Positions 4,252 to 45,105 of a stretch of DNA of 64,000 bases are shown piece after piece. The notes beneath the pieces are model-generated. The model did no database searches, was not told where the DNA came from, and saw only the letters and a program-made list of their open reading frames with translations. The translations under genes were made by a program, and so were the position numbers. Origin of the DNA: Chiloscyllium plagiosum (Eukaryota); assembly GCF_004010195.1 (NCBI RefSeq), contig NC_057718.1, positions 62,604,311 through 62,668,310 on the forward strand. The letters are read 5' to 3'. The stretch's first letter is position 1; every line of letters starts with the position of its first letter.

Positions 4252-4395
4252 AAAAAACTTCATCATCTTCGTCCTAAAAGGTTTACCCCTTAATTTAAAA
4301 TAGTGGTACCTCCTTCTGAACTCATCAAAAAGACAAACATCCTAAACAGGTCCACCTTTCAAGAGTATTCAGGATCTTATACACTTCAATCAAAT

Positions 4396-5748: not shown

Positions 5749-7024
5749 ACCATAAGACATAGGAGCAGAAATGAGGCCATTCGGCCCATCGAGTCTGCTC
5801 CACCATTCAATCATGGCTATGTTTCTAAATCCCATTCTCCTGCTTTCTCCCTGTAATCCTTAATCCCCTTAACGATCAATAATCTATCTATCTCCATCTT
5901 AAATATACTCAAACACCTAGCCTCCACGGCCTTCTATGGCAGTGAATTCCATAAATTCACCACTTTTTGGCTGAAGAAATTTCTCCTTATCTCCATTCTA
6001 AAAGGTCTTCCCTTTACTCTAAGGCTGTGCCCTCAGGTCCTAGCCTGTTCTACCAATGGAAACATCTTCCCAATATCCACTCTGTCCAGGCCATTCAGTA
6101 TTCTGTAATTTTCAATCCGATCACCCCCTCACCCTTCTAAACTCCATCGAGTATAGTCCCAGAGTCCTTAAACGTTCCTCATATGTTAATCTTTTCATTC
6201 CTGGGACTATTCTCGTGAACCTCCTCTGAATGCGCCCCAGGGCCAGTACATCCTGCCTGTGATATGGGGCCAAAAACTGTGCACAGTACTCTAAATGTGG
6301 TCTGACCAGGGCCTTATAAAGCTTCAGAAGTACAAGTTCAAGTTCTCTCAAAATAAATGCCAACATTGCATTTGCTTTCCTAACTCCTAATTAAACCTGC
6401 AAGGTTGCCTTGAGAGAATCCTGGACTAGAATGTTCAAGTCTCTTTGCACTTCAGACTTCTGAATTTTCTCCCCATTTAGAAAATCGTCTATGCTTCTGT
6501 TTATCAAAGTGCATGACTTCACACTTTCCCACGTTGTACTCCACTTGCCACTTCTTTACCCACTCTCCTAACCTGTCCACATCCTTCTGCAGCCTCCCCG
6601 CCTCCTCAGTACTACCTGTCCCTCTACCTATCTTTGTGTCATCTGCAAACTTAGCCAGAATACCCTCAGTTCCTTCATCTAAATTGTTAATGTATAAAGT
6701 GAAAAGTTGTGCTCTGAACGCTGACACTTGCAGAACACCACTTGTCACCAGCTGCCTTCCTGAGAAAGACGCTTTTATCCCTACTCTCTGCTTTCTGCCA
6801 GGCAGCCAATCTTCAATCCATGCTTGCACTTTGCCTCTAACACCATGTGCCCTTTTCTTACACAGCTGCCTCCTGTGCGGCACCTTCTCAAAGGCCTTCT
6901 TGAAGTCCAAGTAGATAACAACCATTGGCTCACCTTGGTCTAACCTGCATGTTATTTCCTCAAAGAATTCTAGCTGATTTGTCAGGTATGACCTCCCCTT
7001 GATGAAACCATGCTTTGCCCTATT
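5749..7024 (-). mobile_element. CR1 LINE, 5'-truncated (RT to 3' tail)
   Basis: ORFs 6452-6925 (YLDFKKAF...FADDTK) and 6121-6366 (LVRPHLEYC); cataaga tail. Confidence 0.92.
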
Positions 7025-7562
7025 TAAAAGGCATAAATGCTTGTGTAGATTAAGAACGAACGAGTATTAACATTAATGAGAGAGCAGCATGAACCTTGCT
7101 GGATTGAGCAGCCATTGAGGTCTCACCATCCCCACGTGAACAGTCATGCTGCTGTCCAACTAAGTCCACTGTTTTCTCCTCAAGTGGGGTGAAGGGCCTA
7201 ATGGCTGCTTGCCCCTTGCTAGTTCTCAACCTCTTGGCCCAGTTATGGGCCATTTCTTCCTATAATGAGACAATGGGAGGATTTGAATATAGTGGAAGTT
7301 GATGAAAGAACAGTTAGTGATAATACAGGATTGTGGGGGGGGAGCTGGTAAGGTGGACCCCAGTAAGTGTGTGGAGCGCAGATGGCAGGATGGGTTAGTC
7401 GTAGTTGGGAGTATAAGGTGGGTGAGAACCATTGAGTGGACATGATGCATACTATAGTGAGCTCTTTTTATTTGTTCATGGGAAGCGGGCCACATTTGCT
7501 TTGCCATCATTTATTGCGCATTCCTGATTGTTCAGAGGACAGTTAAGAATCAACCAGATTGT

Positions 7563-8762
7563 TGTGATGACAGGTGTGAGATTTATAAATTTATTTATGT
7601 TTTGTAGTTTGGATTTTAAACCAGTGGCATAGAGGTTTCAGTCTGTTTGTGTGAAGGCATTCAATAATTAACTAGGGTAGTCTGTCCAGAGCCATGATTT
7701 TAAACCAGTATGTGCCAGAAAACAGATGACTTAAGTCTTTCTGGAATGTTAATGAAAGATTAGATTAGATTACATTACATTACAGTGTGGAAATAGGCCC
7801 TTCGGCCCAACAAGTCCACACTGACCCGCCGAAGCGCAACCCACCCATACCCCTACATTTACCCCTTACCTAACACTACGGGCAATTTAGCATGGCCAAT
7901 TCACCTGACCTGCACATCTTTGGACTGTGGGAGGAAACCGGAGCACCCAGAGGAAACCCACGCAGACACGGGGAGAACGTGCAAACTTCACACAATCAGT
8001 CGCCTGAGGCGGGAATTGAACCCGGGTCTCTGGCGCTGTGAGGCAGCAGTGCTAACCACTGTGCCACCGTGCCGCCCACAAGTTTGTTTATATTGTGGGG
8101 ATTTATGACAGGGGCGCAAAAGCTTTGAAAGACATTAGCTTACTTTTGGGTTTAGAATCCTCAAAGATTTAATTTGGCTTTGAAAATTGGAAAGCTTGTG
8201 GATCAATTTTAAGTTAGATGCACGGAGATGCTCTTCTATAAAAAGGTGACTGTTCAAAGTGGTTAAGGAAGTAGGTAATTTGAAAGAGTGTAATTTGTGA
8301 AACAGTGTAGTTGAAACCAGGAGTGCTTGCTTTAAAATCTGCATTGGTTACTCAAAGTTGAAAAAGTCTCAGGAAAAGCTTTGCAGATCACAGGACAAGA
8401 ACTGAGAAAATAGTAAAGTCAAATCTACACGTTGGATAGGAAAAGAAAACTTTTCTTCTGTTTTATTTATCTGTAAAGTGGCAGTGCTGGGGAATAGATA
8501 AAAGTTTGCATTACTGTGTAAATTGAAATCTTTCAAGTAATATTGTGTATATTGTTTGGCTTGTTTTGGTATGTTTTTATTTTTCTTTTGTTATAAGATT
8601 CTTTTTTTTAAATGTTGAAACCAAATCTGCAATCTGGCATGCTTATGTTTCAGTAGAAGACTACCATGTTAAACCTTAAAAAGAGCAAAATATGATTTGT
8701 CTCACCAGATTTTATTCTTGGTTCTGACATGTTGAGTAGTAACAAAAGCTGGGATTACAACA
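7563..8762 (+). mobile_element. Probable solo LTR (TG...CA) containing an HE1 SINE
   Basis: Begins tgtgatga and ends attacaaca. Interrupts an older SINE-like sequence. Confidence 0.55.
7757..8077 (-). mobile_element. HE1-type SINE, young full-length copy
   Basis: Reverse complement of gggcggcacggtggcacagtggttagcactgctgcctcacagcgccag; (agatt)n tail. Confidence 0.95.
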
Positions 8763-9989
8763 GTTTGGAATTGTATTTAGACCAGGCCAGTAGTTACAGT
8801 AGGTTTCCTTCCTTAAAAATTACACTAGAGTTGCAGTCCATCAACCTTGAGGTGCACTTGCAGTAGCAGAATTTAAATGAGTGCTGGACCTTGCAGGGTA
8901 CATGTGATCATTCACCTTCTTCCTGATCTGCTGTGCATTCTGTCTAATCTTAGGCACAGCATTAACTTAGGCCACTATCTGTGTCCAGGCTGATTATGCC
9001 TGATGGCATGGCCTCTTTTTATAGTCTGCAGAAAAAATGATGGCTGTCCTCACATGCCTCCAGGTCCCAGTTTACAAAACAGGAAGTTAACTCACCTTCT
9101 TGGGCCATTTCCTCACTGATAATGGTCAAATGCCACAGTGTGAGGAGCAGTTCCTAGTTTATTTGAAGTTATCTGCAGCTGGGCTTTAAATACGATGGTG
9201 TGGTGTAAATATTGGAAGCAAGCGTCTCCACCTCTCCTGCCACGCAATTCTACACGAAGGGTGCCATCAGATCTGATTGCATAATTCAGAAGATTACATG
9301 AGAAAAGTTGTTCTGAGCCATAGTGGATAAAGTGCCATAAATCTTATTTAACTAAACATTGAGTATGGAAAAACTCCACCCATTGTTCTTTATAATCATC
9401 TTGCACTATTTTTATAGGTGACAGGTGCCATTTAACAAGCTGTTTCCTTAATTTCTAAGCATACAGATATTTTCACAATGTCACATTAGTCCACTATCCG
9501 GTTTTGTATCTTCTCAACAGCATCATCAGGATTGCAATAAATTTTAAGCGTGGATGACCAATTTATCTTTTGTTAGTTTCTTTATGCGTTATTTGACCCC
9601 CTCCTGCTTTTCCTAATCTAAATCTATCATAGGTCTGTATTCTGTTCTCCCTCATAAGCGTGTCTGGCTTCCTTTTAAATGCATTCAGATTATTTGTTTC
9701 AAACACTCTGTTTGTCACAAGTTGCACAATTCTTGAGTAAAGACATTTCGGCTTAATTCTCTATAGTTTTTCTAGGCACTTTCTCATAATTACGGAGAGT
9801 TATACTTTTCCCCACAAGTGGAAACCTTCTTTGCCCATCCATTCTATTAAAATCTTTTGTAGTTTTATTTACCTAATTAATTCATTACGTACTGTACTTT
9901 TTTTCAAGGAAACTGACATCGTTTTGCATGATTGAATGTAGATATCTTGGGGTTATGGGCCGAGACAAGGTTAGACTAATGGGGACTTC

Positions 9990-10365
9990 CTAAGATGTAG
10001 CAAGGATAGGCTATTTGGCCCATTGAACCTGTTTTATCATTCAGTGACATCTGGGCTGTCTCGAGAGTGACCTTACCTCCACATTCTTGATTGTTCCCTA
10101 ATCCTCAACTGCTTTGTAGATCAAAAATCTAACCAACTCAACTTTGAATATTTTCAATGACCCAGCACCCACAACTCTGTGGAAAGAGAATTCCAAAGGC
10201 TAATGACCTTCTGAGAGAAGGAGTTTCTCTTAATTTCAATCTTAAATGGGAAACCCCTTCTATTTAAGCTATCCTCCCTAATTCTAGACTCCCCACGAGA
10301 AGAAAAATCCTCTCAGCATCTACTTTGTTAAGCACCCTCAGAAGCCTGTGTGTTTCAATGAGAAG
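9990..10365 (-). mobile_element. CR1 3' fragment
   Basis: Similar to the 3' part of 5749-6100. Confidence 0.65.
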
Positions 10366-10629
10366 AAAATGCTATAAAGCAATTTGTAAATAATTAAAAC
10401 TTATTGCTTAGCCGAAGGAACAAGGATGATCAGTGAGCTGGACTTAACTTAAGCTAGGACATAAGCGGTACACTTTTTGATTTCTCAAGTTTACAGAGGG
10501 TAGGATAAAAGAGGATGGCCAAAAATAGTCAAGTCTGGAGATGGAATAAAATTTGGATGAAGGTTTCAGCAAGGCAGGGGTAGGGTTGAGCAATATACAA
10601 TTCATAGTGAGGGTACAGATATATGTTTG

Positions 10630-10824
10630 AGGAGAAAGTGAGGTCTGCAGATGCTAGAGATCAGAGCTGAAAATGTGTTGCTGGAAAAGCGCAGCAGGTC
10701 AGGTAGCATCCAGGGAACAGGAGAATCGACGTTTCTGAAGAAGGGCTTATGCCCGAAACGTCGATTCTCCTGTTCCCTGGATGCTACCTGACCTGCTGCG
10801 CTTTTCCAGCAACACATTTTCAGC
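10630..10824 (+). mobile_element. Palindromic Penelope-derived mini-element with perfect 71-bp arms and 16-bp TSD
   Basis: Arms 10665-10735 and 10755-10825 are exact reverse complements. TSD tacagatatatgtttg at 10614-10629/10825-10840. Unpaired tail of about 35 nt. Confidence 0.92.
10735..10762 (+). ncRNA. Minimal hammerhead ribozyme core (PLE type)
   Basis: CUGAAGA-A-GGGC-UUAU-GCCC-GAAA-CGUC: all core nucleotides present, 4-bp stem II, self-complementary ACGU stem III, GUC triplet. Confidence 0.8.
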
Positions 10825-11290
10825 TACAGATATATGTTTGTAAATTCAACTTGAAGTCAACTTATGAACAATTGATATAGCTTCAAATGGTTGCTGCAAA
10901 AGAGGATAGAGTTTCTGGCTAAGCAATGTTTGTGGAGTGAATGGACAATAATGGTTTCAGTTTTCTTAGTATTTAGCTGGAGAAAATGTCTGCTTATACA
11001 CTATTAGATGTTGGAAAAGCATTTTGACAAGTTTGAGACAGTGAAGCGGTTGAGATAAATGTTGGTGAGGTAGTGGCAGGTATTGCCAGTGTACTTTATA
11101 ATTTCTCATATGTTTTTGGCTGATTTCACTGAGAGTCAATATAGAAATGAGAATTAGCAGGGAGCCAAATATAAATCCTTGGGTAAATCAGAGGCACCAA
11201 TAGGAAAAAAAAGCTATTATGAGTAGATAGCTAAGAAAAAAACAGAACTCTGCATCCCCCCGCCAGCTGAACAATGATGAAGAGGCCTTC

Positions 11291-11385
11291 AACAAAAACA
11301 GAAGTTGCTAGAAAAGTTCAGCAGGTCTGGCACCATCTGTGAAAAAAAATCAGAACTAACGTTTCGTGTCTGGTGACCCTTTCTC
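11291..11385 (-). mobile_element. Penelope pLTR fragment with truncated hammerhead (3' half only)
   Basis: Minus strand reads aagggtcaccagacacgaaacgttag; shares the gctggaaaag...gcaggtc terminus motif. Confidence 0.65.
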
Positions 11386-13289
11386 TGGCCTTAGAGGTGG
11401 GAAGTGTTCTCAAGTGGAAGATGTTTCTTAAAGGTGACAGGTTATGAAGGACAAAGAGAGAGAATTTATCTTTTGTTTTATATAGACACTTAGCACATCA
11501 TTTGTGCCTATGAAATGGGCCATTTTTGAACTGGGGCAGAGAAATTTAAGCATCGAGTTCTGGGAAAATGAGCATCATTTTCAGAATGAAAATATATTCA
11601 AGGATTTTGGAAAGAGATGATGAAAACAGATTTGAAGAAGATGAGGACGGTGCTTGTGGAGTAAGTACCATTAAAAGTATCAAGTAACATTAGAATCCCA
11701 AAAAGAATTTGGATCGTCAGCAGTTTTAGTGGGAATAGAGTGCAAAGAACAGGAAGTAAATCTATTGGACAAAGTGAACTCAGAGATGGAAAGGAAATAT
11801 GGTCATAGGAGATGGAAAAGAAATCATAAAAAAAACAAGTTCAGGGTAGAGCAGAAGGAAATGTATACAGGAAACTTGGCCTGATTCTTTTCCCAAAAAT
11901 ATACTCCATTCATAAAATTTGTAAAAGCATTGGGACTTGAAAATTAGAGTGCAATAACATGCAACATTTCTCCATATAATATTCCACTTTTACCGTGCTT
12001 CAGCATGTTTGTAACAGTCTTCATATTTAAAATATACATTTCATGCCAAGCATAGAACCCAGGGCAAAAACAATTTAAATTGAAAACTGTAGAAAATGCA
12101 GTAGAAATAAACTTTTCTTGATGGAACATGTTCCATGCTGAGTTGCATCAATAGCACTTAGTGCTTTTGATGTTCACAATGTATATCCTTGCCAGGAATG
12201 GAACCCTGGCAAGCCCTTCATGGCCAAGGGGAAGAGGGGTAAATAGGAAAGGCAGATAAACGAATGGATTGAATGTTGGTGCCAAAGAAATCCATAGTGT
12301 CATTACGCTTGTTTGGAGGCAAGGATAAATGAGACAGGGCAGAGGATTTAAGAAGATGGTTTGCAGTCTTGGAGAAGCCAGGGTTATAAGGAAGATAATC
12401 CAAGGATTGTTATCTGTTTTGGCAGGTATTAACAGAACCTGATGGTCTTTATGATCCAACCTGACTTGGTGTTGATTGACTAAACCGTTTTTGCATGTCT
12501 TTTCTAATCAATTTTACATTCAGTGGACTTAAGGCGTTGGGGATGAGGCCCATATTTGGGAACTGGGGTCATGGGGGAGGTTTTTGTGTGTGAACCCTGA
12601 AGGTGGAAGGGGGGAAATTGTGGCTCATAGATCAACAGCTTTGGGGACATGTAACGTGGAAAAATGAAATGGCTTGCAAATTAAAGTGATGGACTCAGAC
12701 CCAAAGTGGTTTCCAAAATGCGCACACAAATGGGCACAGACAAATTATATGTGCTTGGTTAGATAGCAATTATTGGAATGCCTGTGCCCTATGTATACCT
12801 AAAGTGGGCATGAGAGAAACAATTTTCGTTCCTGTTATCTGAAATCAAGAGGCAAGGTAAAATTCCTGACATTGAATTACTTGAAGTTAAATGCCAAGTC
12901 AACAAATGCTACTCTCACGAGGGTGTGTGGCTTGGTCACCAACTTCTGGTGTAGGGGGGACATAAACAAATAATTTCTTATATGGATGACTTTTGGATAC
13001 TTCAAGACTACTACGATCATTTGTGCTCAAGTTAAAGAAAATGTTTCCAAAGAACTTGAAAACTTCGATAGTGCAGGCTGTGTTGAAGGATTACATTGCA
13101 TCTTGGAGACCCAAGGAGGTTAAAGGCAAAAATAGAAAACAAATTCAGGGATCGATGCTAAATGATCCCATGATTTATACCTGCACCACTAATAGTAATA
13201 ATTGTTGTTCAAGAATTGAATTCTTAAATCACTCATGATGCAGAATGGCAAAGTAAGTGAAATATTTTGATTTCTGCATCATTCATTGA

Positions 13290-16959: not shown

Positions 16960-17885
16960 TCACTTGATTGAGTTTTTGAAGAAGATTGTTGAGGGCAGAG
17001 TAGTAGATGTGATCTATATGGACTTCATTAAGGCGTTCGACAAGATTCCCCATGGGAGACTGATTAGCAAGTTTAGATCTCATGGAATACAGGGAGAACT
17101 AGCCATTTGGATACAGAACTGGCTGAAAGGTAGAACTCAGAGGGTGGTGGTGGAGGGTTGTTTTTCAGACTGGAGACCTGTGACCAGTGGAGTGCCACAA
17201 GGATCGGTGCTGGGCCCTCTACATTTTGTCATTTACATAAATGATTTGGATGCGAGCATAAGAGGTACAGTTAGTAAGTTTGCAGATGACACCAAAATTG
17301 GAGGTGTAGTGGACAGNNNNNNNNNNNNNNNNNNNNNNNNNNNNNNNNNNNNNNNNNNNNNNNNNNNNNNNNNNNNNNNNNNNNNNNNNNNNNNNNNNNN
17401 NNNNNNNNNNNNNNNNNNNNNNNNNNNNNNNNNNNNNNNNNNNNNNNNNNNNNNNNNNNNNNNNNNNNNNNNNNNNNNNNNNNNNNNNNNNNNNNNNNNN
17501 NNNNNNNNNNNNNNNNNNNNNNNNNNNNNNNNNNNNNNNNNNNNNNNNNNNNNNNNNNNNNNNNNNNNNNNNNNNNNNNNGGGAGTCCAGAACTAGAGGG
17601 CATAGGTTTAGGGTGAGAGGGGAAAGATATAAAAGAGACCTAAGGGGCAACTTTTTCACGCAGAGGGTGGTACGTGTATGGAATGAGCTGCCAGAGGATG
17701 TGGTGGAGGCTGGTACAATTGCAACATTTAAGAGGCATTTGGATGGGTAGATGAATAGAAAGGGTTTGGAGGGATATGGGCTGGGTGCTGGCAGGTGGGA
17801 CTAGATTGGGTTGGGATATCTGGTCGGCACAGACGGGTTGGACCGAAGGGTCTGTTTCCATGCTGTACATCTCTATGACTCTATA
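16960..17885 (+). mobile_element. Young CR1/HER1-type LINE, 5'-truncated, spanning an assembly gap
   Basis: [13 protein letters not shown]...[11 protein letters not shown]...FADDTK; (ctctatga)n tail. Confidence 0.92.
17317..17580. other. Assembly gap (264 N)
   Basis: Run of N. Confidence 1.
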
Positions 17886-20540: not shown

Positions 20541-21559
20541 TAACTGTGAAATACTCCTTCACCAGTAATGCAAGTCCTCACACCCTTTACATCCCTTTCT
20601 ATCACACCTGAAACATCTAAATCCTGTCCCTCTTTCAGCCATCTCCTTAATCGCAATAACGTCATAGTTGTAATTACTAACCAAAGCTCTGAGTTAATCT
20701 ACCTTTGCCTATTATACTACTTGCATTGAAACACATGCAGTTCAGACCACCTCTCCTGCTCTTTTCAGCAGCGTTTCCCTGCCTGTTTTTGTTCTTAATT
20801 ACATTTGCCTTGGTTTCTATCTCTCCCTCAATTTTGACATCTTCTGCCCTACCCCTCTGGTTCCCATCCCCCGCCACACTAGTTTAAACCATTCCAACCA
20901 CTCTACCATATACCCCCACCTCTGCCAGAACCGGTCCCATTGCCCCATGAATCTGAAACCCTCCTCCTCACATCATCTTTTTAGCCACGTGTTCATCCTA
21001 TATATCCTGCTGTTTCTACTCTGATTAGCTTGTGGCACTGGTAGTAGTCCTGTGATAACTATCTTAAGGGCATACATTTCAACTTTCTTCCTAATTCTCT
21101 ATATTCAGCGTTTAGATTTCATGCTTTTTTAACCTATGTCGTTAGTACTAACGTGTACCATGACCACTAACTGTTTGCCCTTCCTCTCCAGAATGTCCTG
21201 CACCTATCACTAGGAAGGCAGCTCACCATCCTGGACTCTCATTTGAAGCTACAGAAATGCCTATCTATTTCCCTTATGATTGAACCCCCTATAGCTAAAA
21301 CATTTCTATGCCTATTTCTCCCTCCCTGTGCAGCAGAGCCAACCATGGAACCATGAATTTGCTGCTCTTGTTATCCCCTGAGAGACCATTCCCCTCAACA
21401 GTATCCAAAACGGTGTATCTATTTTGCAGGGGAATAGCCACAGAAGATTCCAGCACTGCCTGCTAAGCCCTCCCACTCAGCCTGGTGGTCACACATTCCC
21501 TTTCTACCTGTGGAGTCTGAGACTGTGGCATGGCCACCTCTCTATGCATGCTGTCTATT

Positions 21560-24500
21560 GGTGTTCCTGATGCCCATTTCACTGCTGGCATCCCCCAAGG
21601 TTCAAGAAGATCAGATTTAACCTGGTGTGGAGCCTTCTTCCCATTAGCAACTCTGCTGCAGCTATCCCTGTGGTTGTATGAGGGGTGGTCTGATAATCAA
21701 ATAAGAACTGTGAGAGTCCACCCCCCCCCCCCCCCCAAAAAAACACCAATTCCCCTCCCTCCATATTTGATGAATAAACTGTATGCACATCCAAGTATTT
21801 TGAGTGGGCACCACAATGACTGAGAACATTAAGCCCATGAAAAGGGTCAGCATGGTTGACATGTAACTGAATGCAGGATTTACCCAGTCATTCCCACAAA
21901 TGTGGGGAGCTGCTGATGGTAATTTTTTCCCTTGGTGACACTCTGGGCAATGCCCCCACCAACATGGCTATGTCTGCATCCAACCCTGGCCACCAAACAT
22001 AGCTTCCCACCAACATCTTCATTTTGGATATTCCTGGATGACCTTGATGGAGTATCTGGCAGCAACCTTTGCTCGAAACAATCATTCTTGCTCCCTTTAA
22101 TAAATTGCAATCCTTTACAGTGATCTGGTCTCACGGGATCTAGAAACATTTCGGTTCTGGTTATGATGGCTGTTTCATTTTCCCCATCACTACCAGCTGA
22201 TTACCAGGATAAGATCTTTTTGTGTCCACAGTCTGATATTGTTTGTGGTGACCAGAAGGGTGTCCAGAAAGTTGGAAACAAAAACAGACTCTTCCAATAG
22301 CTGCATGATTGGTGGTGTATCTGCCAGTGGGAGATCACTCAAGGCTTCTGCATTTGCTACTTGGGTGGTATGGCCTTGTCATCTTTGAGTTGTCTGAGTA
22401 AGGGTTTACAGTCTGTTATTATTACAAATTTATGTCTATAACGGTATTGCTGGAACTGTCTCGCACTAAAGATGACTGCCAAACCTTCCTTCTCGTTTGG
22501 GCATATTTGCGCTCTGTATCAGCCAAAATCCAAGAAGTGTATGAAATTGGGTGTTCTTCTCCATTCGGCCATCTGTGAGCCAACATTACCCTGATACCGT
22601 GTGGGGAGGCATCAGTGGTCAGCACCAGATCTCGCTTGGGCTCATAGTGTACCAACACCTTTGACAGTGATAGCTGCTTCTTCACTTCCCTAAAGGAAGA
22701 CTTGTCTCCAAGGTTGTCCCTTTGTCAATAACAGATTTAAGAGTGCCAGGGTAGAGGCCATGTTACAAATGAACTTTCCATTATAATTTACCAATCCAAG
22801 GAAAGACCTAACCTCTGTTACAGACTTGGGAGTCAGGGCACCTTTGATCACCCTCATTTTGTCTTCCAACAGGTATAACCCAGTCTTGTCAACGCTGTAG
22901 TTCAAGTAGGTCACTTGAGGATCCTGAATATACATTTTTCCCTTTTAAGGTGTACACCCACCTTGGAAAAGTGTCTAAGGACTACATCTAAGTTTTGTAA
23001 ATGCTGTTTATTGGTCTTCCCTGTTATTAGCACATCATCCAGATACATGGCAACTTGGGGTAGACCTTATAAAACATTCTCCGTAATCCACTGAAAAATG
23101 GCACAGGCTGATGATACCCCAAATGGCAGTCTCATATATTGGTACAAATCTTTATGGATGTTAATTATAGCATACATCTGGGAAATCTTATCTAACTGCA
23201 GTTACAGGCATGCATGACTCATGGCCAGCATTGTGAGGGAAACCAGCTTTGCTTGTATGTCATCCATGCGAGGAATTGAGTATTTATTCAGCTGCAAGAA
23301 GCGGTTTGCTATTTTCTTTAAAATCCCCACAAAGATGGATTAACCTGTCAGTCTTCACAATTGGTACGGTTGGTGCTGCCCATTCCACAAACCGTACTGG
23401 TTTCATTATTCCTTTCCTTTCCAGCCTCCTGATTTCTGCCTCTACTTTTGCACATAATGGTGCTAGGTAGGCCTTGCAAAATCATGGAATTCCTTCTGGG
23501 TTAACATGCACAGTGGTTTTAGCTCCTACCTTCCTAAAAAACTTCCGTGGATTTAAATAGGGTTTCACTCTAGTTGAAAATGTTGAGCCAATCTAGGTGA
23601 ATCTTCCTCAACCAATTTCACCCTATCAAACTTGGACCCAAACCTTTTACTACAAGCAGGGGTAACTGAACCAGCTGCTTTTCAAGAAACCGGAACTGAA
23701 GTTATATCCCCAACGTAGATTCTCTGTCTAGCCGAGGTCTTATGCAAACTTAAGGGTTGGAGTCCAGAGCAAAATTTGTTAAAAACTGGTTCTGCAATGA
23801 GTGATACAGCCTTGCCAATTCCATTAGAACCGGGTGACCATTTAACCAGACATTTATTTTGATTGGTCCTGATTTGGATATTGCTAAGCAATTTAACTGT
23901 TCCAAACCAGATGTAGGTGTGCTTTCCTACTTTCTCCTGGATACCAGCCAATGTATTCTTCTACTCCATTCAGGCCTAATAGGGTTGTTTTGTTGTTTTA
24001 AGTCAGCAATTACAATGACTTTCCAGCCCAGGTCCTGGAGGAAATATTAACCATTTGGCTGGGGCTAGGGATTTTACTGTGCGCAGAGCTAGAGTCCCTC
24101 CATTCAGGATAAGCACGGAGTGAGGCTATGTAATTGCCTTCACTCAAGTGGTGTCCCCCAAGGTCAGTTGGCCTGGTGAGGGTATGCACATCCATCGACA
24201 TACTCTGTAACCCATAGGCTCCACTTGCTGCATTTTCTCATGACAAAGCCAGTTGTAAGTGCCTGTTTGAAGTCCAATTGGGCTTCTGCTACCACCTGCT
24301 TTTGCATGGCTACATCATTAATCCCACATGCCAAATGGTCTCTTAGCATCTCATTAAAGGTTAAACCAAAGTCACATGCCTCTGCCAGTCATCTAAACCT
24401 CATCAAAAACCCCAACATTTCTCTGGTTCTTGAACTGCCCAGTAAAATTGATACCATCTCAGAATTAGAGAAGGCTTGGGGTCAGAATATTACTTCAGTA

Positions 24501-24760
24501 AATTTGTCACCTCTTGAAAGGATTTAGTAACTAGTGCCTCAGGAAACATTAGACTCCAAATAACTGAAAAAGGTGTGGATCCACAAGCTGTCGGGTGAAT
24601 TATTCGTTGGTTTACATCTACCCCAATGTCATTTGCCTGGAAAAAATACTGCATCCTTTCCACATACTAGGCCCAGTATTCAGCAGGATCAAACAAGTCA
24701 CAGTTCCCAAATAACAACATGATGCCAGAAATGCTAACCCCAACTCAAAGACGACCGTTG
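21560..24760 (-). mobile_element. Decayed Ty3/Gypsy retrotransposon internal region (gag-PR-RT-RH-IN)
   Basis: Gag start ...W.QYVERMQYFFQANDI-like (about 24620-24720), YLDD at about 23035-23047, RSFLGLVNY, LTTDASPHGI, LHQGHPGISKMK, TTPHTTTGIAAAELLMGR. Many stops and frameshifts. Confidence 0.92.
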
Positions 24761-24764
24761 CAAG

Positions 24765-25077
24765 TGTTGTAGTAACATTAATAAAACTTAAATTTAGAAG
24801 CAAGTCAATCAAATTTATTAAATCAAAAGCTTTTGGGAGGGGCAATGTGATTCTGACCCTAACCGTGGGACTTGACCACGCCGTCTCTCCCAGAACAACA
24901 GATACAGCAGTTTTATTGTCTGGATGACATGTACAAAAAAAGCCCACAAAGGATGGTTTCTTGTGTTCTGTGCATGCGCACGCAGCGATTGCTGTTTCCG
25001 GGAATGGCATACACGTCATTGTGTTCTGCAAGTATTTCTTGTTTAGTTATTTATTCTTTAATTAGTTTCTGTTTTCA
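24765..25077 (-). mobile_element. Putative ERV 3' LTR (313 bp) preceded by a polypurine tract
   Basis: Minus strand: aaagagggac|TGAAAACAG...AATAAA (24814-24819)...ttactacaaCA, directly downstream of env. Confidence 0.7.
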
Positions 25078-25125
25078 GTCCCTCTTTGTGATCTGAGACA
25101 TGTGGGAACAGAATGAACAGACCAC

Positions 25126-25720
25126 CTACGTCCAATAATCTTCAGTGGACCCAGAAAGGGGGTAGAGGCTAGCACCCGGCATAATTCTCGCTGTCAATAC
25201 TTTACAACGTAAGGACAGCCATAATAATGCAGTAAGCATTGACAATATCAGTGAACATGAAGAAGGCATGCAAAAGATACGAACTCCAAGATACACCTTG
25301 TAGCCATTCCTCGCCACCCCAGGGGGATTGTAATCATGAAACTGTTTGCCTTTCTGCCAGATTTTATCAGCCTCCAGGCAGATGTGATTCGCTAGGTTAG
25401 TTATTTTGTCCGAGGCGTCCAAAATGTACGTGCAGCATTCTAGGATGATAACAGCTCAGGTTGCACTGTGTGCCACTAGTACATCGTCAAAGGCCAAACA
25501 GTTCTGCAACACAACAGTACAGGTGGCAACAATCTCAGCCGACACTTCAGAGCTGGCCATACTAATGGCTGCAAAGTCATCAGCAATCTCATTAGCCAAC
25601 CTTTCTAAGGTTAAGGCCATATTGATCAGTTCCGTAGCAGCCTTAGCAGTCCCATAGGTGGTGAAGGCGATCATAAAGAATTGTTCAGTCTCAGTGATGG
25701 ACCAATTGGATCAAAGTAGG
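25126..25720 (-). pseudogene. env: Endogenous retrovirus env, transmembrane subunit (gamma-type)
   Basis: One frame: fusion-peptide/heptad region, ISD-like VLQNCLAFDDVLVA, then T*AVIILECCTYI, which is CX6CC with the first Cys mutated to TGA (25456-25458). Confidence 0.88.
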
Positions 25721-25759
25721 TGTATGTTGGAATGAAGGCAGAGGGATCGTTTTACCAGT

Positions 25760-26200
25760 ACAGAGGAAGCTCAATTATCCGAATATCAATTATCTGAATT
25801 TCGGATTATCCGAAGAAAATCTCAAGGTCCCGATAGAAACATTACATCAACTGATTGCGTCTTCTGTTTACAATGATTAAAATCAAACACGGCTTACTGA
25901 AATGCTGCTGAGAACAGTCCTGGGCATCAATGGGAGCCTAGGCAGATGGGGCGGGCATGTGACGGATGGGGGGGAGACAGTGGGGATGGAGTTGGACAAG
26001 ATTGGGGGTAGACTGGGGTGTGTTGGTGGGGGTGGGGTTGGACAGGGTGGGGGGGCGGATGGGGGGGCTGACGGGGACGACGGCAAGGCGGCCGAGTCAG
26101 TGTTGGACGGGGTGGGAGGCACACACATGGTGTGCTACTGCCTAGTCTCCTGAGCAGGGAGTGGACTTAGCAAGTGCTCGCTATGTCAATCCCATTGAAC
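25760..26200 (+). mobile_element. Tigger/pogo-like DNA element terminus with G-rich interior
   Basis: TA|cagaggaagctcaattatccgaa...; matches the reverse complement of 31890-31965. Confidence 0.7.
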
Positions 26201-27900
26201 TGATGGAGGGGTGGTGTTTGCTGAAGGCTTCAGCAATGCTGCAGGTCCCTTACAGCAAGTGTGTCTCTGCTCAGAAACAAACTCTGAGACAGCATGGATT
26301 TAGTTGGTGGCAAAAGAACAACCTCCGATTTTGCCCTTCGCATGTTATAAACTGTGCGTAATTTTCCCGTATTTAACATTTTTACGAGGGTGTGTTTGGT
26401 ATGCAAGACTATATTCCCTGTCATCAGAATAAGCTCACTCACCCTCACAGCCCACGCAGAACAGTCTAAAGCAGCCATACATCTGGGCAAGCCATTCATA
26501 GAACATAGAACATAGAAGAATACAGCGCAGTACAGGCCCTTTGGCCCTCGATGTTGCGCCGATCCAAGCCCACCTAACCTATACTAACCCACTATCCTCC
26601 ATATACCTATCCAATGCCCGCTTAAATGCCCATAAAGAGGGAGAGTCCACCACTGCTACTGGCAGGGCATTCCATGAACTTACGACTCGCTGAGTGAAGA
26701 ACCTACTCAGCCCCAGGTGCCTCAGTCTTTCCTCATACGATTTTCCTTTCATACCAGGCAACATCCTGGTAAACCTCCTCTGCACCCGTTCCAGTGCCTC
26801 CACATCCTTCCTATAGTATGGCGACCAAAACTGCACACAATATTCCAGATGCGGCCGCACCAGAGTCTTATACAACTGCATCATGACCTCAGGACTCCGG
26901 AACTCAATTCCTCTACCAATAAAAGCCAGTACGCCATATGCCTTCCTCACCGCACTATTTACCTGGGTGGCAACTTTCAGAGATCTGTGTACATGGACAC
27001 CAAGATCCCTCTGCTCATCCACACTACCAAGTATCCGACCATTAGCCCAGTACCCCATCTTTTTGTTTTTCTTCCCAAAGTGAATCACCTCACACTTAGC
27101 TACATTGAATTCCATTTGCCACCTTTCTGCCCAGCTCTGCAGCTTCTCTATATCCTGCTGTAACCTGCCACATCCTTCACTACAGGACCACCATTCACTA
27201 CGGGACCCTCAGCAGCATAAGAGTACCCTATAGGTCACCTTTGTTCGCCATGGAGCTGCGTTACTACTGCTTAGTAAAAACCTCCCTCTTCGTTGCAGTA
27301 AATGTGGAATTCTTTACTAGCATCTGGTAATCCCAGTCCCGGTGCTGAGATTAACTCCACTTTCAGTTTTGTATAAGAGTCGTCTTGCTCCAGCCCCCAG
27401 TCAACAGGGCCTGTTGCAGGTTTACTCCCTTTTACCAATTGTTGTATGGGCTCGACCAGTTCGGCAAACTCAGGGATAAAGTTTCTGCAGTAATTAAACA
27501 AGCCCAAGACCTTTCTCATACCATGGACTGTTACGGGCCATGGCATCTGTTGTATAGCTGGCTTCCTGTCTGCAAGCATTTCTTTCATGCCTTGGGAAAT
27601 TAAATGTCCCAAGTAAAGAACTCTAGTTTTCCCAATGTGAGCTTTCTCTAGCTGGCTTTTAACCCTCTGTCCTGCAAGTGCTTCAGGACTAAGTATAGCA
27701 CCTCCTGATGTCTTGGTTTGGATTCAGAAGCCAGGAGGATGTCATCGATATATTGGACTATTATACTGCCATGTGGCAGGTCAATCTCCCTGAGTACGTC
27801 ACTCATTATACAGTGAAAGATGGCTGGACTATTATGGAATCTCTAAGAAAGTCTTGTCCAAATATACTGTTTATCATCTGTCAGCCAGGGTTCCCTCATT
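26200..27900 (-). pseudogene. pol: Endogenous retrovirus pol fragment (RT and connection), split by a CR1
   Basis: WTRLS*RFHNSPAIF, VQYIDDILLA (YIDD at 27741-27752), LGLFNYCRNFIPEFA, SAPGLGLPDASKEF, PVVNG|LPRC. Confidence 0.88.
26499..27190 (-). mobile_element. Young CR1 insertion with internal deletion and 7-bp TSD
   Basis: ORF 26579-27115 is CR1 RT C-terminus; (catagaa)n tail; TSD ccattca at 26492-26498/27191-27197. Confidence 0.92.
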
Positions 27901-28331
27901 GGTCTGTTAACCACACTCTACCACCTAACTGACCTCATTGCAATCACTACACTCTGCAATGTGATCTGAATATTTCCCCTGTCCTGAGCTGACCTACCAT
28001 TTGTCGCCCTATATTCTTCAGTTAACCAACCGTCACCCAATGCCCTCTCCTATCCATATGATATCCCACCCTCACCCAATTACGTTCCCTTTATAGCTGG
28101 TCAAAGTGCCTATTAGACTTTTATATCCTATAATATGGCACTTACTGTGGTAAGAAGGGTCATGCTTTGGATTCCCTCGTAAATTTACTTTGCAAGGATA
28201 ATCGAGGTACCCTCTGCATTGCACAAGATGCTCAGTTCAGAAGTTTTGGGCCAGAAATGCAGAAAGAGAAAAGGTGATCTGACAGTGTTTGCCACTTCTT
28301 ACCATGTGAATTATTATTTTTGTACCTTCAG

Positions 28332-29605
28332 CTGAGAAAGGTGACTAACCTGAATAGGCCAAAGAAGTGCAATAGAGAACTTTATGTCAGAACCAGAGAA
28401 CAAATGGACTGAATTTGTTTTATTTTCTTGAACCTAGGTCCAAAGCCCGCTTTTCACAGATGCGTCCAACATAGTGGATTCCAAGAACTAAAAAGGATGA
28501 TTCTTTGATTTTTTGAGATGATTAATTAATAAATACTGAACTGCACCATAATTTAAATCTGCATGTATACTTGCATAATTAAATATCTATACATGTACAA
28601 CCAGCTGATGGTTTTCCTAATTTTGCAGTGGTATATACTTGAACCATATCAGATAGATGCAACCACATTAATTCCACTTATTATGTTAGCTGTTCTGCAT
28701 CTATTAGTATTCAGATTAGTTCAGATAGCTTAATTACATTTATGTCATAAATTTGTACCTTTTCCTACTTTCAGTGTGGCTTTTCTGGTTGTCCAAAACT
28801 ACAGTGAATTAATTATTAGAACTGTGAACTGCAGTTTAGTAATTCTCCTACTATTACTCAATGTTAAAAAGCTTGAACTTGCAAAATTCTGAAACTTAAG
28901 TTGCTGGACAACTGATCCTGAAACAAAATATCTTAATTTGAGAAAACTGGTTAGCAGCCATCATGAATTTAGAAAAGTGGATTCTTTGTTTATAGCTACC
29001 CAAGGTTCTTGTGGCTGTGTAGTACCTTTCCAGATATCCTTGAAGTGATATGATCTAGACCTTTATTTATAGAGAGATTGTTTTCATAACATCCTTCTTT
29101 GTTTTTAAACTTCAATCTCAGTTTATGAAATCTAAATATTGGTACTTTAAAATTCTTTGGAATTCAATTTTGTACTGTAATTTCTGAAATAAGTTTTTGG
29201 GAATTTTAAAAGCCATTTCTGACATTCTGCACTTAAAATAGCTTATACAATGTAATAAAGTCTATACCCTTTTAAGGGCTTCTAGTAGACTAGATACCAA
29301 TTTTAAAGATACAAGTTATGAAAATAAATACATGGAGGAATACATGCTGTCTTCATTTATATCACTATAAGTATGAAATTGTTTAGTGCAGAGGATTAGA
29401 AAATAATGGAGATGTATATCGAAGAACTTTAAGATCGAGTTTTGAATTGCAGTCAACTGTCTTTCCACACAATGTGCTTTATGTTGCATATTTGTTGATT
29501 GCTTAAAGTGAAACTTGCATTCATGCTTACTGTATATATTTTCTTTACACACAAACTACATGGTTGACAATGAAGAGTGACTTCCTCAATAAAATGTAAA
29601 ATAAA
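28332..29605 (+). other. Terminal exon of gene A: stop at 28333-28335 then AT-rich 3' UTR
   Basis: Acceptor ttattttttgtaccttcag|C TGA completes AG+C (Ser) then stop. About 2 kb without recognisable repeats; AATAAA near 29254 and 29588-29605. UTR end uncertain. Confidence 0.6.
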
Positions 29606-30607
29606 CGCTGTTGTACCATAGAATTTTCAATAATATGGTGTTTCAGAAAATCAACACAATGAAACTATCTGAAAACCAAAAATGTTTCATTTGAGCAATC
29701 AGGAGGCCAAAGCAATTACAATAGCTTTATGTATTTTGGAGTTTACCCAAAAGCCCAATTTAGTACTTCATTTAGATGTCAGTTTTGATAAACTGTATAT
29801 TTTCTTTATTCTGTCAAAACTGATTCAACAACAATAATTTTGTTTAGTTATTTAAATAGTTTAAGATACTTACCTATCGTGATGTTTTAAAACGGATTAT
29901 AAATGCAACTACTGAGGAGTCGTGTTGAAGCTTATTTTGACTGACGTCATTCGATCTATTTCTAAACTTCAAATATTTTGGCATAGTTGTCAAACCGTCT
30001 GATATTGAACAAAACCTTGCTGTATCTCAGTGAAATATAGTATTAGTTAATTTATGCAATTTCTCGAATTAATTTAATTGTTTGCTGTGGTTCTGTTTTT
30101 AAAATTCCACCATTCCATCATTGTAAAAAGTCTTTTATGATGTTTTCAGTGTTGAGGTTTATGTGAAATATTCTGCATTATATGTAAGAAGCACTCACCA
30201 TGGTTTTTTAAAAAACCTTCTATGTATTATGTACCTGTGAAGTCTCGTGCATGAACAGATTGCTACCTTTTCATTTTTTTGCAAAATTGCAACAAATTTT
30301 AAAATGCATTTGAAGTACTAGTATATCTTCTTAGCATACTTTGATTTGCAAGCGGAAGTATGCTGATATTTTGAGTATCCTATTCTCTCCAAACTACATT
30401 GTTGACAATATTTCTCTCAGGAGCAAGTGCAAGTCCAGTGGATAATCTGATATGGTTGATAGACTGGATGTGAACAATTTAATTGCATTAATTGAGTCTG
30501 TTATCCTTTTTATCTGATTCTTTATCTTCCTGGAGGTTATAGTATGACAATAGAGCATGATTCTAACCAAATGCATGAATTTATGAAACCAACTCTACAA
30601 ATGTTCA

Positions 30608-31231: not shown

Positions 31232-32005
31232 TTCATGAACCCTCGATTATCCAAAGGACATGGGCAGGGTGCATTTGGTTCACTTAATCAAATTCCGGAT
31301 AATCGAATGTCGAATAACATAGTTTAACCAAGCATCGGGGCCTTGCGATCATGCCGGATAATCCGATACAGAGGAACCTCGATTATCCGAACAAGATAGG
31401 CGGGCACCATTTCGTTCAGATAATCGATTTTAGATTAAACAGGGGAAGCCATACTGATCTAATGCTGTGCTCTACCAGAGAATTGTTTAAATCTATAATT
31501 TTAATGAGTCAGCCATTTAAACAAACTAGTCTTTTCAGTCTGCAAATTACAGGTTAAACCCTTACCATGAAATTCCAGCATTGAACAAGATCCCAAACAG
31601 CATCTACGATCGCTAGACCATTTACAGTATCGGTTTCTGGAAACTCAGTATGGCGATAGAAAGACAAAAGCCCCGCCTCACGCATGCGTTTACATTCTTG
31701 GCCTTTTTTTTAAATGAACGGCCCGGTAAAGTGCTGGGAATACTGTAAAAGACTTACTTTTGCAAAGGGCTGTGTACCAACCCTTACCTAAAAAATATCC
31801 AGTCACTGATACTTGAGCTGCTTGTGTTTCTTTGTTTTTGCCAGCGTTTTCACATGTTCCTCAGTAGAGGTAAAGTGAATACACTTACATCTTTGATGTA
31901 ACATTTTGTGGGACCTTGAAATCTTCTTCAGATAACCCGATATTTGGATAATCGAGCTTTCTCTGTATGTGAATAATCGAGTGTCAGATAATCGAGTTTC
32001 TTCTT
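31232..32005. mobile_element. Tigger/pogo-like MITE with a related MITE (31369-31965) nested inside
   Basis: Inner TIRs cagaggaacctcgattatccga / ttggataatcgagctttctctg with TA on both sides. Outer ends ccctcgattatcc / gataatcgagtttcttct. Confidence 0.8.
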
Positions 32006-32418
32006 TATGTGGTACATCTGTCCATTATCCAGTTCTCATCATGAGAGCTCAGTTCACTCCTGATATTTGTATTTTCAATCACCCTTCTCATGCATGTTTT
32101 GCGACACTTCTGAAGCAAGTGGGACAGCTGGTATATAATTGATCACGCACATCACATGTTGGCAGTCAAATTATCTGGGGTCTGTTTGTCAAAATTTCAG
32201 TAAGATTAATTTAAAAATATTTAACTATTGTATATGCAAGACTCAAATAGAGATTTCCTAAAGAAAGTTTATTTTTTCAGCTGCAGAGGATGTGTAGTGT
32301 ACAACGATTCTATTCCTGTAGAATTCTACTTTTGATAAACCTCTTGTTTTTTTGCAATGAAGGTCTCATCATAATTTCTATCTCTCATCTTCCTGCATTA
32401 AAGTTGTAGAACTGTATG

Positions 32419-39406: not shown

Positions 39407-41015
39407 GGATCAGTGGTGCTGGAAGAGCACAGCAATTCAGGCAGCATCCGAGGACAGGCAAAATCGACGTTTCGGGCAAAAGCCCTTCATCAGGAATAAA
39501 GGCAGAGAGCCTGAAGCATGGAGAGATAAGCTAGAGGAGGGGGGGGGGGGGGAGAGAGTAGCATAGAGTACAATAGGTAGGTGGGGAAGGAGATGAAGGT
39601 GATAGGTCAGGGAAGAGAGGGTGGAGTGGATAGGTGGAAAACGAGCTGGGCAGGTCGGACAAGTCCGGACAGGTCAGGGGATCGAGTTTCTGGAGGTTAG
39701 AAGCTAGGATGAGGTGGGGGAAGGGGAAATGAGGAAACTGTTAAAATCCACATTGATGCCCTGGAGTTTAAGTGTTCCGAGGCGGAAGATGAGGCATTCT
39801 TCCTCCAGGCGTCTGGTGGTGAAGGAGCGGCGGTGGAGGAGGCCCAGCACCTCCATATCCTCGGCAGAGTGGGAGGGGGAGTTCAAATGTTGAGCCACGG
39901 GGCGATTTGGTAAGTGCCAGGATGGGAGGGTGGGTGGTAGGGGGGCGTGGACCTGACCAGGTAGTCACGGAGGGAACGGTCTTTGCGGAAGGCTGAGAGG
40001 GGTGGGGAGGGAAATATATCCCTGGTGGTGGGGTCTGTTTGGAGGTGGTGGAAATGTCGGCGGATGATTTGGTTTATGCGAAGGTTGGTAGGGTGGAAGG
40101 TGAGCACCAGGGGTGTTCTGTCCTTGTTGCGGTTGGAGGGGTTGGGTCTGAGGGCGGGGGTGCGGGATGTGGATGAGATGCGTTGGAGGGCATCTTTAAC
40201 CACGTGGGAAGGGAAATTGCGGTCTCTAAAGAAGGAGGCCTTCTGGTGTGTTCTGTGGTGGAACTGGAATTGGGAATACGGGATGGTATATTTGCAGGAG
40301 GTAGGTGGGAAGAGGTTTAATCCAGGTAGCTGTGGGAGTCGGTGGGTTTGTAGAAAATGTCAGTGTCAAGTCTGTCGTCACTGGGGATGGAGAGGTCCAG
40401 GAAGGGGAGGGATGTGTCAGAGATGGTCCAGGTAAATTTAAGGTCAGGGTGGAATGTTTTGGTGAAGTTGATGAATTGCTCAACCTCCTGTGGGAGCACG
40501 AGGTGGCGCCAATGCAGTCATCAATGTAGCGGAGGAATAGGTGGGGAGTGGTGCCGGTGTAATTATGGAAGATCAACTGTTCTACGTAGCCAACAAAAAG
40601 ACAGGCATAGCTGGGGCCCATATGGGTTCCCATGGCTACCCCTTTGGTCTGGAGGAAGTGGGAGGATTCAAAGGAGAAATTGTTAAGGGTGAGGACCAGT
40701 TCGGCCAAACGAATGAGAGTGTCGGTGGAAGGGTACTGTTGGGCTCGTCTGGAGAGGAAAAAACGGAGGGCTTAGAGGCCCTGATTATGGCGGATGGAGG
40801 TGTAGAGGGATTGGATATCCATGGTGAAGATGAGGCATTGGGGGCTGGGGAAACGGAAGTCTTGGAGGAGGTGGAGGGCGTGGGTGGTGTCTCGAACGTA
40901 TGTGGGGAGTTCCTGGACTAGGGGGGATAGGACAGTGTCAAGGTAGGTAGAGATGAGTTCAGTGGGGCAGGAGCATGCTGAGACAATGGGTCGGCCAGGG
41001 TGGTCAGGCTTATGG
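39407..41015 (-). mobile_element. Penelope-like retroelement (RT, partial GIY-YIG, pLTR), 10-bp TSD
   Basis: GRPIVS, MDIQSLYTSI, QTKGVAMG, FLRYIDD; TSD attaagtact at 39397-39406/41016-41025. Confidence 0.95.
39466..39493 (-). ncRNA. Intact minimal hammerhead core in PLE pLTR
   Basis: CUGAUGA-A-GGGC-UUUU-GCCC-GAAA-CGUC. Confidence 0.82.
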
Positions 41016-42514: not shown

Positions 42515-45105
42515 ATGATGACATAAAAATAGGTAAGAAAATGAGTTGTGAAGAGGACACATGGAGCCTACAAATTGATACAGATAGGTTAAGTGAGTGT
42601 ACGCGATTTGCTAAACCTTTGCCCAATGTGGGGCAGTGTGAAATTGTGCAATTGGGCAGAGAGAATAAAAAGAAGCATGTTATAAATGGTGAGAGGTTGC
42701 AGAGTTCTGAGATGCTGAGACAGTCCTGGTGCGTGAATCACTGAAGGATAATATGCAGGAACAGCAAATAATCAGGAAAGCTGATGTTATGCTTTATTGC
42801 AAGAGGAAATTGAATGCACCAGTAAGGAAGTTATGCTTCAGTTGTACAGGATATTGGTGAGACCGCATTTGGAGCACTGTGTACAATCCTCGTCATTGTA
42901 TTTACAGTATAATGTTAATGCATTAGAAGCAGTTCAGAGAAGGTTTACTGGACTAACATCTGAAGTGAGGAGACAGTGAGGTCTGTAGATGCTGGAGATC
43001 AGAATTGCGAGTGTGTTGCCGGAAAGGCATAGGAGGTCAGGCAGCATCTAAGAAGCAAGAAAATCGATGTTTCGGGCTGGAGCCCTTCATCAAGAATGAG
43101 GGGCTGGAGCCCTTCATCAAGAATGAGGCTGGGAGCCTCCGGGGTGGAGAGATAATTAGGAGGGGAGTGGGGTATGGGGAGAAGGTAGCTGAGAGTGCAA
43201 TAAATGGATGGAGGTGGAGTTAAAGGTGATAAATCGGAGAGGAGGGTGGAGCAGATAGGTGGGAAGGCAGATTGACAGGTCATGAGGGCAGTGCTGAGCT
43301 GGAAGGTTGGAACTGGGGTAAGGTGGGGGGAGAGGAAATGAGGAAACTGGTGGAGTCCACATTGATGCCCTGGGGTTGGAGGGTTCCGAGGAGGAAGATA
43401 AGGCGTTCTTCCTCCAGGCGTTGGGTGGTAAGGGAGTGGTGATGGAGGAGGCCCAGGACCTGCATCTCCTCGGCAGAGTGGGAGGGAGAGTTAAAATGTT
43501 CAGCCACGGGGCGGTGTGGTCGATTGGTGAGGGTGTTGCGGAGATGTTCTCTAAAGCGCTCCATGAGAAGGCATCCAGTCTCCCCAATGTAGAGGAGACC
43601 GCATCGGGAGCAATGGATACAATAAATGACGTGTGGAAGTGCAGGTGAAGCTTTGATGGATGTGAAAAGCTCCTTTGGGGCCTTGGGCGGAGGTAAGGGG
43701 GGAGGTATTGGCGCAGTTTTTGCAGTTCCTGTGGTGGCAGGGGAAGGTGCCAGGAGGGGAGGGTGGGTTTTTGGGGTGTGTGGACCTGACCAGGTGGTCA
43801 CGGAGGGAACGGTCTTTGCAGAAAGCGGATAGGGTGGGGAGGGATGGTGGGGTCCGTTCGTTGGTGGCGGAAATGTCGGCGGATGATACGATTTATGTGG
43901 AGGTTGGTGGGGTGGAAGTGAGGACCAGGGGGGTTCTGTCTTTGTTGCGGCTGGAGGGGTGGAGTTCGAGGGCAGAGGTGCGGGACGTGGATGAGATGCA
44001 TTAGAGGGCGTTTTCAATCACGTGGAAGGGGAAATTTCGGTCTTTAAAGAAGAAGGCCATCTGGTGTGTTCTGTGGTGGTACTGGCCCTCCTGGGAGCAG
44101 ATGCGGCGGAGGCAGGGGAATTGGGAATACGGGATAGAATTTTTGCAGGAGGTAGGGTAGGAGGAGCTGTAATCCAGGTAACTGTGGAAGTCAGTGGGTT
44201 TGTAAAAAATGTCAGTGTCGAGTCAGTCCTCGTGGATGAGATGGAGAGGTCTCGGAAGGGGAGGGATGTGTCAGAGATGGTCCCGGTGAATTTAAGGTCT
44301 GGATGGAATGTGTTGGTGAAGTTAATGAACTGTTCGACCTCCTTGTGGGAGCACGAGGTGGCGCCGATGCAGTCATCAATGTAGTGGAGGAAGAGGTGGG
44401 GAGTGGTGCTCGTGTAACTACAGAAGATGGACTATTCTACATAGCCGACAAAGAGACAGGCATAGCTGGGGCCCATGTGGGTGCCCATGGCTACCCCTTT
44501 TGGCTGGAGGAAGTGGGAGGATTGGAAGAAGAAATTGTTGAGGATGAGGACCAGTTCAGCCAAACGAATAAGAGTGTCAGTGGGGACGTCGGGAGAAGAA
44601 GAAACAGGGGCCCTGGTCATGCATATGGAGGTGTAGAGGGATTGGATGTCGTCTGAAGTGAGCAAATTACCTTCCGCGGAAATGCTAAACAAACTAAGCC
44701 CTGTATCCTCTGGAGTTTAGAAGAATCAGAAATATTTCATAGAAACATACAAGAACTTGAGGCGACTTCACTGAGTGGATGTTGAAAGGATCTTTCCTTT
44801 TTTGGGAGAATGTAGAAGTAGGGCTCATAGTTTAAACATAAGGACTTGCCCATTTTAAACAGGTGAAACATTTTTTTCTCTCAGAGGGTTGAAAGTCTTT
44901 GGAAAAGTCTTGAAAGTAGGCAGATGCAAAACCTTTAAATATTTTTAAGGCAGCAGCAGCTATATTCTTGATTCCTGAGGGGATGAAGTTTGTCAGGAAT
45001 ATGTAGGGAAGTAGAGTTGGGGTTAAAATCAAATCAGCCATGATCATATTGAACAGTGGTACAGGCTCAAAGGGCCAATAGGCCTACTCTTGTTCATTGT
45101 ATGTA
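42515..45105 (+). mobile_element. Old CR1 3' fragment hosting a Penelope insertion
   Basis: LYRILVRPHLEHC...EAVQRRFT; resumes after 44662. Confidence 0.8.
42970..44651 (-). mobile_element. Penelope-like retroelement (RT, GIY-YIG, pLTR), 11-bp TSD
   Basis: DIQSLYTSI, KGVAMG, VIYCIHCSRCGLLYIGETG; TSD tctgaagtgag at 42959-42969/44652-44662. Hammerhead at about 43066-43093 has C3>U. Confidence 0.95.

Follow-up and report, generated by a model that had tools for sequence, protein, structure and literature searches.

Retroviral envelopes of the gamma type are the source of the syncytins and are related to filovirus GP2. They are defined by the presence of an ISD together with a CX6CC motif (bioRxiv 10.1101/2021.11.23.469661; PMC9967133), and the portion of the review consulted describes the exogenous epsilonretroviruses as lacking a gamma-type Env (PMC9967133). 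In the text of the preprint available to us, 25,498 ERVs with gamma-type Env are reported from 37 anamniotes, including six cartilaginous fish, with 46 orthologous groups in Chiloscyllium (bioRxiv 10.1101/2021.11.23.469661), and the description of the present lineage as sparsely sampled, given in an initial annotation of the DNA studied here, was thus overstated. The same text describes a class III, SnRV-related group with gamma-type Env, of which ERV-SA.a-Ppe is an example (Chen et al., bioRxiv 10.1101/2021.11.23.469661). Clade Huo, which is SnRV-related, holds class III ERVs (Xu et al. 2018, PMC6001957), and CmiERV lineage I of the elephant shark is an SnRV-clustering ERV in a cartilaginous fish (Han 2015, PMC4422223). 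For Xenopus tropicalis, the accessible account of XtERV-S describes a class III gag-pol combined with a gamma-type TM that carries a glycan site in HR1 (PMC8278194). A count of 349 ERVs has also been given for the whale shark, in a source available in part.

The locus described here lies within a window of 64,000 nucleotides (the whole stretch of Chiloscyllium plagiosum DNA that was analysed), whose host context is elasmobranch-like by nearest proteins, as the initial annotation had proposed. It probably represents one provirus, long dead, from a shark ERV family of low copy number, in which an SnRV-related (clade Huo, class III-type) pol would be combined with a class I gamma-type env. Over 24765-27878 the following parts occur in minus-strand order, bordered downstream by a Gypsy element.

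27650-27878, minus strand: RT palm remnant (FHNSP, YIDD), with an abrupt start, two stops and a frame shift near 27650
27839-27825, minus strand: FHNSP
27752-27741, minus strand: YIDD
27191-27650, minus strand: RT thumb and start of the connection/tether, with two in-frame stops
27197-27191 and 26498-26492: 7-nt target duplication of the CR1
26499-27190, minus strand: 5'-truncated CR1 LINE inside pol, contig depth above 1e6
26293-26498, minus strand: remainder of the tether; Pol likeness ends at about 26293, the deletion point
25759-26290, no strand assigned: one half of a high-copy MITE, contig depth 2077-22740 against about 6 in unique flank
25126-25710, minus strand: gamma-type Env TM (fusion peptide, HR1, ISD, broken CX6CC, membrane anchor), no SU
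25080-25087, minus strand: polypurine tract (PPT), 2 nt ahead of the LTR
24765-25077, minus strand: 3' LTR of 313 nt, TG...CA (TG at 25077, CA at 24765)
24917-24909 and from 24819, minus strand: LTR signals, a TATA-like box and AATAAA
21558-24764, minus strand: decayed co-oriented Gypsy element outside the ERV, gag ATG at 24720, leader abutting the LTR

All the features that had first been read from the DNA, namely the minus-strand RT, the connection domain, a TM with an ISD-like motif and a CX6CC whose first Cys is a stop, the PPT and the TG...CA LTR, are present, and to them can be added the MITE half and the env frame shift near 25340. The CR1 itself likewise holds, though its end had been placed at 27197: the last seven letters, 27197-27191, are its target duplication. 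The thumb/connection stretch occupies 27650-27198 and the tether continues beyond the CR1. The view of the locus as an old and internally deleted provirus agrees with the three pol pieces, the missing regions and the interrupting CR1 and MITE. Everything 5' of the RT palm remnant (5' LTR, gag, pro and the N-terminal RT) is lost, and the copy further lacks integrase, SU and the second end of the MITE; to the absences noted initially (integrase, SU, gag and 5' LTR) RNase H must be added. No open frame for a whole protein exists at the locus, and a single LTR is found in the window, where paired LTRs, a PBS and a target duplication of the provirus were sought and not found. An Rfam search of 21000-30000 returned no matches.

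The MITE, which we take to be of Tigger/pogo type, has a single terminal inverted repeat with TA at 25759-25781, and its opposite end is missing. This end repeat occurs three further times in the window (none expected by chance); copies of it lie at 31240-31400 and 31890-32010. A proline-rich frame at 25883-26134 was considered as the proline-rich region of SU and rejected, being MITE sequence. Adjoining the 5' break of pol is a moderately repeated stretch, 27918-28051 (depth 110 versus 5.5-6.8). Elsewhere in the window, two remnants that are presumably of Penelope-like RT/GIY-YIG type (39690-40771 and 43002-44653) are 84-89% alike and about 3.8 kb apart, and an assembly gap of 264 N at 17317-17580 falls within a CR1, with 17222-17800 consisting of the surrounding LINE sequence.

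A sequence of events can be proposed because the insertions and deletions are nested. The ERV would have integrated into an older Gypsy element, some 45 nt ahead of the start of its gag, and a MITE would then have inserted at the SU/TM border. One deletion, running from the tether into the MITE, would have removed RNase H, integrase, SU and the second end of the MITE, and another the 5' half of the ERV together with the 5' LTR of the Gypsy element, while the CR1 inserted into pol and point mutations gave rise to the stops and frame shifts. By analogy with its family, the ancestral virus would have used a class III-type polymerase, entered cells through an SU-TM pair linked by the CX6CC disulfide and fused by formation of an HR1/HR2 hairpin.

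The Pol remnant is that of a true retrovirus, neither Gypsy nor epsilon-like. The RT palm piece matches Pfam RVT_1 (E 7.5e-15), and the three pol pieces align to one 914-aa Pol at aa 216-298, 278-446 and 425-510 with identities of 60, 66 and 63% (E 6e-26, 4e-63 and 2e-29, respectively). The cluster of this Pol contains the nearest named one, Mustelus asterias XP_078069418.1, whose identity to the three pieces is 63, 70 and 75%. RNase H is present in the 70%-identical relatives and deleted in the window copy, which keeps the tether. The YIDD of the window is not diagnostic, as the motif is YVDD in the three closest relatives in which it can be read. Long open pol frames occur in relatives, a sign of continued activity of the lineage in sharks long after the window copy had died. 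In databases, relatives with a retroviral Pol carry the labels 'uncharacterized', 'NYNRIN-like' or 'Gypsy integrase-like', and the lineage is thereby hidden from searches by name.

Placement of the Pol was based on an RT tree of 65 rows and 386 columns, in which the three pol pieces stand as separate rows beside 62 references chosen from two Pol searches; 19 near-duplicate or partial rows were removed before the first tree, and the set contains no SnRV, ERV-L, ERV-S, WDSV or class II rows, with epsilon-like labels assigned by the author from host and motifs. Each pol piece groups with the Mustelus and ENA Pols (SH-aLRT 100) and next with Heterodontus and a JGI Pol (100), with six further rows outside these (98), four of which are named proteins from teleosts. 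A separate clade (99) is made up of the 26 gamma and epsilon-like rows, and the window Pol falls outside it. In AU tests, for which 4 rows were omitted, grouping with Gypsy was rejected (p 0.0022), in keeping with the initial reading of a retrovirus, as was grouping with the epsilon-like rows (p 0.00025). The lineage is nearer to class I than to the foamy virus (98); the simian foamy row, itself a long branch, is separate from it, no grouping with spumaretroviruses was found, and the Env is of gamma rather than foamy type. An RT motif, D-Y, is shared by all four shark-clade rows and by none of the 26 crown rows, 25 of which have D-L; according to Table 2 of PMC8278194, D-Y also occurs in class III and foamy RT. 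The affinity to gamma- and epsilon-like viruses first suggested for the whole element is thus not borne out for Pol, which lies outside the 26-row crown, with the epsilon-like grouping rejected and class III-type RT motifs found in its relatives. Judged by motifs and by likeness to the eye, the lineage would belong to clade Huo and class III, a class assignment to be read against an RT tree that holds no SnRV row.

The tree shape also accords with a different history, in which the shark-turtle-eel lineage is a surviving grade just outside the gamma plus epsilon crown and its gamma-type Env is ancestral, rather than acquired through recombination by a class III backbone. The supports along this part of the tree (98, 95, 98 and 99) are in line with such a grade, and constraining the Huo-like rows to one clade met with weak rejection (p 0.035 and 0.036), the groups having been named once the tree had been seen. 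If this history were true, the gamma-type envelope would predate class I, and 'clade Huo' would no longer stand as one clade; we regard it as rather doubtful, and favour the combination of a class III-type pol with a class I env.

The envelope is of gamma type by its TM, as had been proposed. With stops read as X, the TM matches 91 proteins at E<=0.001 (best 7e-31), with the ISD and CX6CC at the homologous place, and it also matches syncytin-2 (E 0.003). No Pfam family was matched by the TM piece itself, and TLV_coat (Pfam) was found in all eight TM relatives tested. Ten matches were looked up: four are elasmobranch 'PABLB-like' Env models, to which the TM is 37-52% identical, two are teleost proteins and four are unnamed. 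The ISD-like motif begins at 25509 and an in-frame stop occupies the first position of CX6CC (25458-25456), with at least one frame shift, near 25340. A profile of 39 of the 91 relatives, leaving out one low-complexity match and matches under 250 aa, matches 25710-25339 (E 1.6e-36), with a weak continuation in another frame at 25342-25208 (E 0.004); the same profile finds no SU (CXXC, furin site) on either strand of 24700-28300. Among these long relatives the ISD is present in 37 and CX6CC in 36. The HR1 exceeds that of most relatives by one heptad, a property shared by 13 of 57, including the Pristis, Carcharodon and Stegostoma models. In a TM tree of 117 columns, no strongly supported set includes the window row, and a single-sequence model of the TM is helical (pLDDT 64), uninformative as to an HR1/HR2 hairpin and without a Foldseek match at E<=0.001.

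It could be argued that pol and the env plus LTR stem from two ERVs, one of class III type and one of class I, joined by a deletion running into the MITE. The join does run through the MITE, and among viral contigs, metagenomes and contig sets, no contig or database record joins the window pol to the window env; searches of metagenomes with a near relative and of viral contigs gave no fuller locus, and an alignment search gave three loci, two of them from a 39-45% fish-type relative that ends just after pol with no env match. In three cartilaginous fish, the preprint text puts ERVs with gamma-type Env at more than 500 copies (bioRxiv 10.1101/2021.11.23.469661), a number at which nesting is possible, and the depth of env is below that of pol. 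Against this, the parts follow the pol-env-PPT-LTR order on one strand, and the abundances of pol and of env plus LTR are of the same order: relative to unique flank, summed contig depth (run X1) is 34-39 for pol, 12-29 for env and 41-62 for the LTR, as opposed to 328-2025 for Gypsy gag. Divergence from paralogous contigs is likewise 12-16% whether measured in pol, env or the LTR, and the combination itself has been published from a sawfish, as far as the available text describes it. An origin from two ERVs is therefore unlikely, and the abundances suggest that pol, env and LTR belong to one low-copy family of tens of copies relative to flank, far below the adjoining Gypsy element, although summed depth is not a copy number.

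Two other species labels supply four orthologue-like contigs, which differ by 2.4-5%. Of these, two run from pol across its 5' break into unique flank, and the remaining two from env into the LTR. Since they share these junctions, the insertion and the 5' loss predate the splits of the species labels. The locus thus seems to have been kept under three labels, with no single contig spanning the whole stretch. Substitution rates on offer in the partial sources are an assumed 2.2e-10 per year and 7e-10 per generation, and dating from the paralogue distance is limited by the viral divergence that it includes.

The proximity of the Gypsy element raises the question of which element owns the LTR. 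This element is 31-48% identical to an unnamed Gypsy polyprotein and its 3' end is cut by LINE sequence near 21450; its CpG ratio (0.17) is the lowest of the region, and because of this it may be older than the ERV. The LTR could belong to the Gypsy element as its 5' LTR, or combine parts of both LTRs as a chimera: only about 45 nt separate its CA end from the Gypsy gag ATG, and the window showed no other LTR for the Gypsy element. This is decidedly unlikely, given that the LTR begins 2 nt after the PPT, that one paralogous contig aligns across 24766-25056 as a single unit, and that two contigs of another species lose the match at 24765 and 24767, continuing with 212 and 29 unlike letters. Contig depth points the same way, at 253-380 for the LTR against 2021-12473 for Gypsy gag, with pol at 208-240 and env at 74-180. 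At 24961-25004, alignments of paralogous LTRs from each of the three contig sets step back by 44 nt, which marks a tandem duplication in U3 that is absent here. A contig of depth 73.5 in run X15 (guessed to be RNA) matches the right half of the LTR (24765-24914) and then diverges; the X15 species may carry many copies of a related LTR or transcribe it.

An ordinary epsilon- or gamma-like fish ERV of class I would account for the gamma-type TM and for a thumb piece that scores 95 bits on MLV RT, its best solved-structure match, and 44 on foamy RT. The lineage also stands beside class I in the RT tree, and a fish relative reads gag and pol in a single frame across a TAG. Yet the position of Pol outside the crown, the AU result, the class III-type motifs and the assignment of the nearest published rows to clade Huo, as given in the accessible part of that study, make a class I origin of the whole element very improbable. 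The fish-type relative is represented by metagenome contigs L001 (1112-6457) and L002 (664-6009), whose open gag and pol lie in the same frame, interrupted by a single stop that is TAG in L002; neither contig reaches an env.

That the TM remnant is a host gene co-opted under the LTR or a host promoter can hardly be sustained, for all its apparent preservation under three species labels, as it has no signal peptide, no SU, a stop within CX6CC and a frame shift, no reads mapped to the env or pol bins in the one raw RNA run, sampled at about 2 in 100 of a single-cell poly(A) library, and its orthologue distance resembles that of the flank. The locus is a dead, decayed remnant without function and is in itself of little weight.

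Its value is rather that of a marker: under three species labels, it adds a shark example in which a class III-type Pol accompanies a gamma-type Env, and near relatives of its Pol lineage occur in other sharks and, judged by eye, in turtles. If the linkage were confirmed in fuller copies and the lineage lay just outside class I, it would bear on when the gamma-type envelope joined the retroviruses. A literature search yielded no paper on the locus, which the preprint supplements could contain; the part of PMC10435555 consulted adds nothing on the Pol lineage, and six short DNA patterns for the CX6CC region gave nothing in Xu's S2 Data, a result of little weight.

The nearest named proteins for env are the 'PABLB member 1 Env-like' models of Pristis, Heterodontus, Carcharodon and Stegostoma, whose names are automatic; three of these four share the longer HR1 with the window TM. 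For Pol, the accessible rows of Xu et al. 2018 (PMC6001957) offer the closest published comparison. Of 19 rows with QGFHNSP, 18 were examined: 15 are in the clade Huo text block, two are not in the figure text, one is unnamed and none is in another block. The Huo rows Rh_ty_ERV4 (whale shark), Ch_my_ERV12, Ch_pi_ERV20 and Ma_te_ERV13 (turtles) and An_ja_ERV1 (eel) carry the RT signature of the window lineage and are close to it in protease, thumb and tether, a likeness judged by eye only (PMC6001957). The link to these rows rests on this inspection and on text order rather than on the drawn tree, with the whale-shark and turtle rows at the end of the Huo block; in our RT tree, Huo-like rows form a grade next to class I, unlike one clade. 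Ca_mi_ERV1 of the same source shares QGFHNSP and appears by eye more distant from the window than the whale-shark and turtle rows.

The combination of a class III-type Pol with a gamma-type Env is already published from sawfish and frog, as described in the texts available, and the window element is a further example. XtERV-S, by its partial account, is ERV-L/ERV-S-like, intact and recent, whereas the window element is dead and of another Pol lineage (PMC8278194); the window TM keeps the position of the HR1 glycan, with the sequon not intact. ERV-SA.a-Ppe, in which we infer that 'Ppe' stands for Pristis pectinata, the species of the best named env match, comes from a fish genome survey and, like the window element, joins a class III-type Pol to a class I gamma-type Env; it is set beside the window element by its description rather than by sequence, and the window copy differs in lacking gag, integrase and SU.
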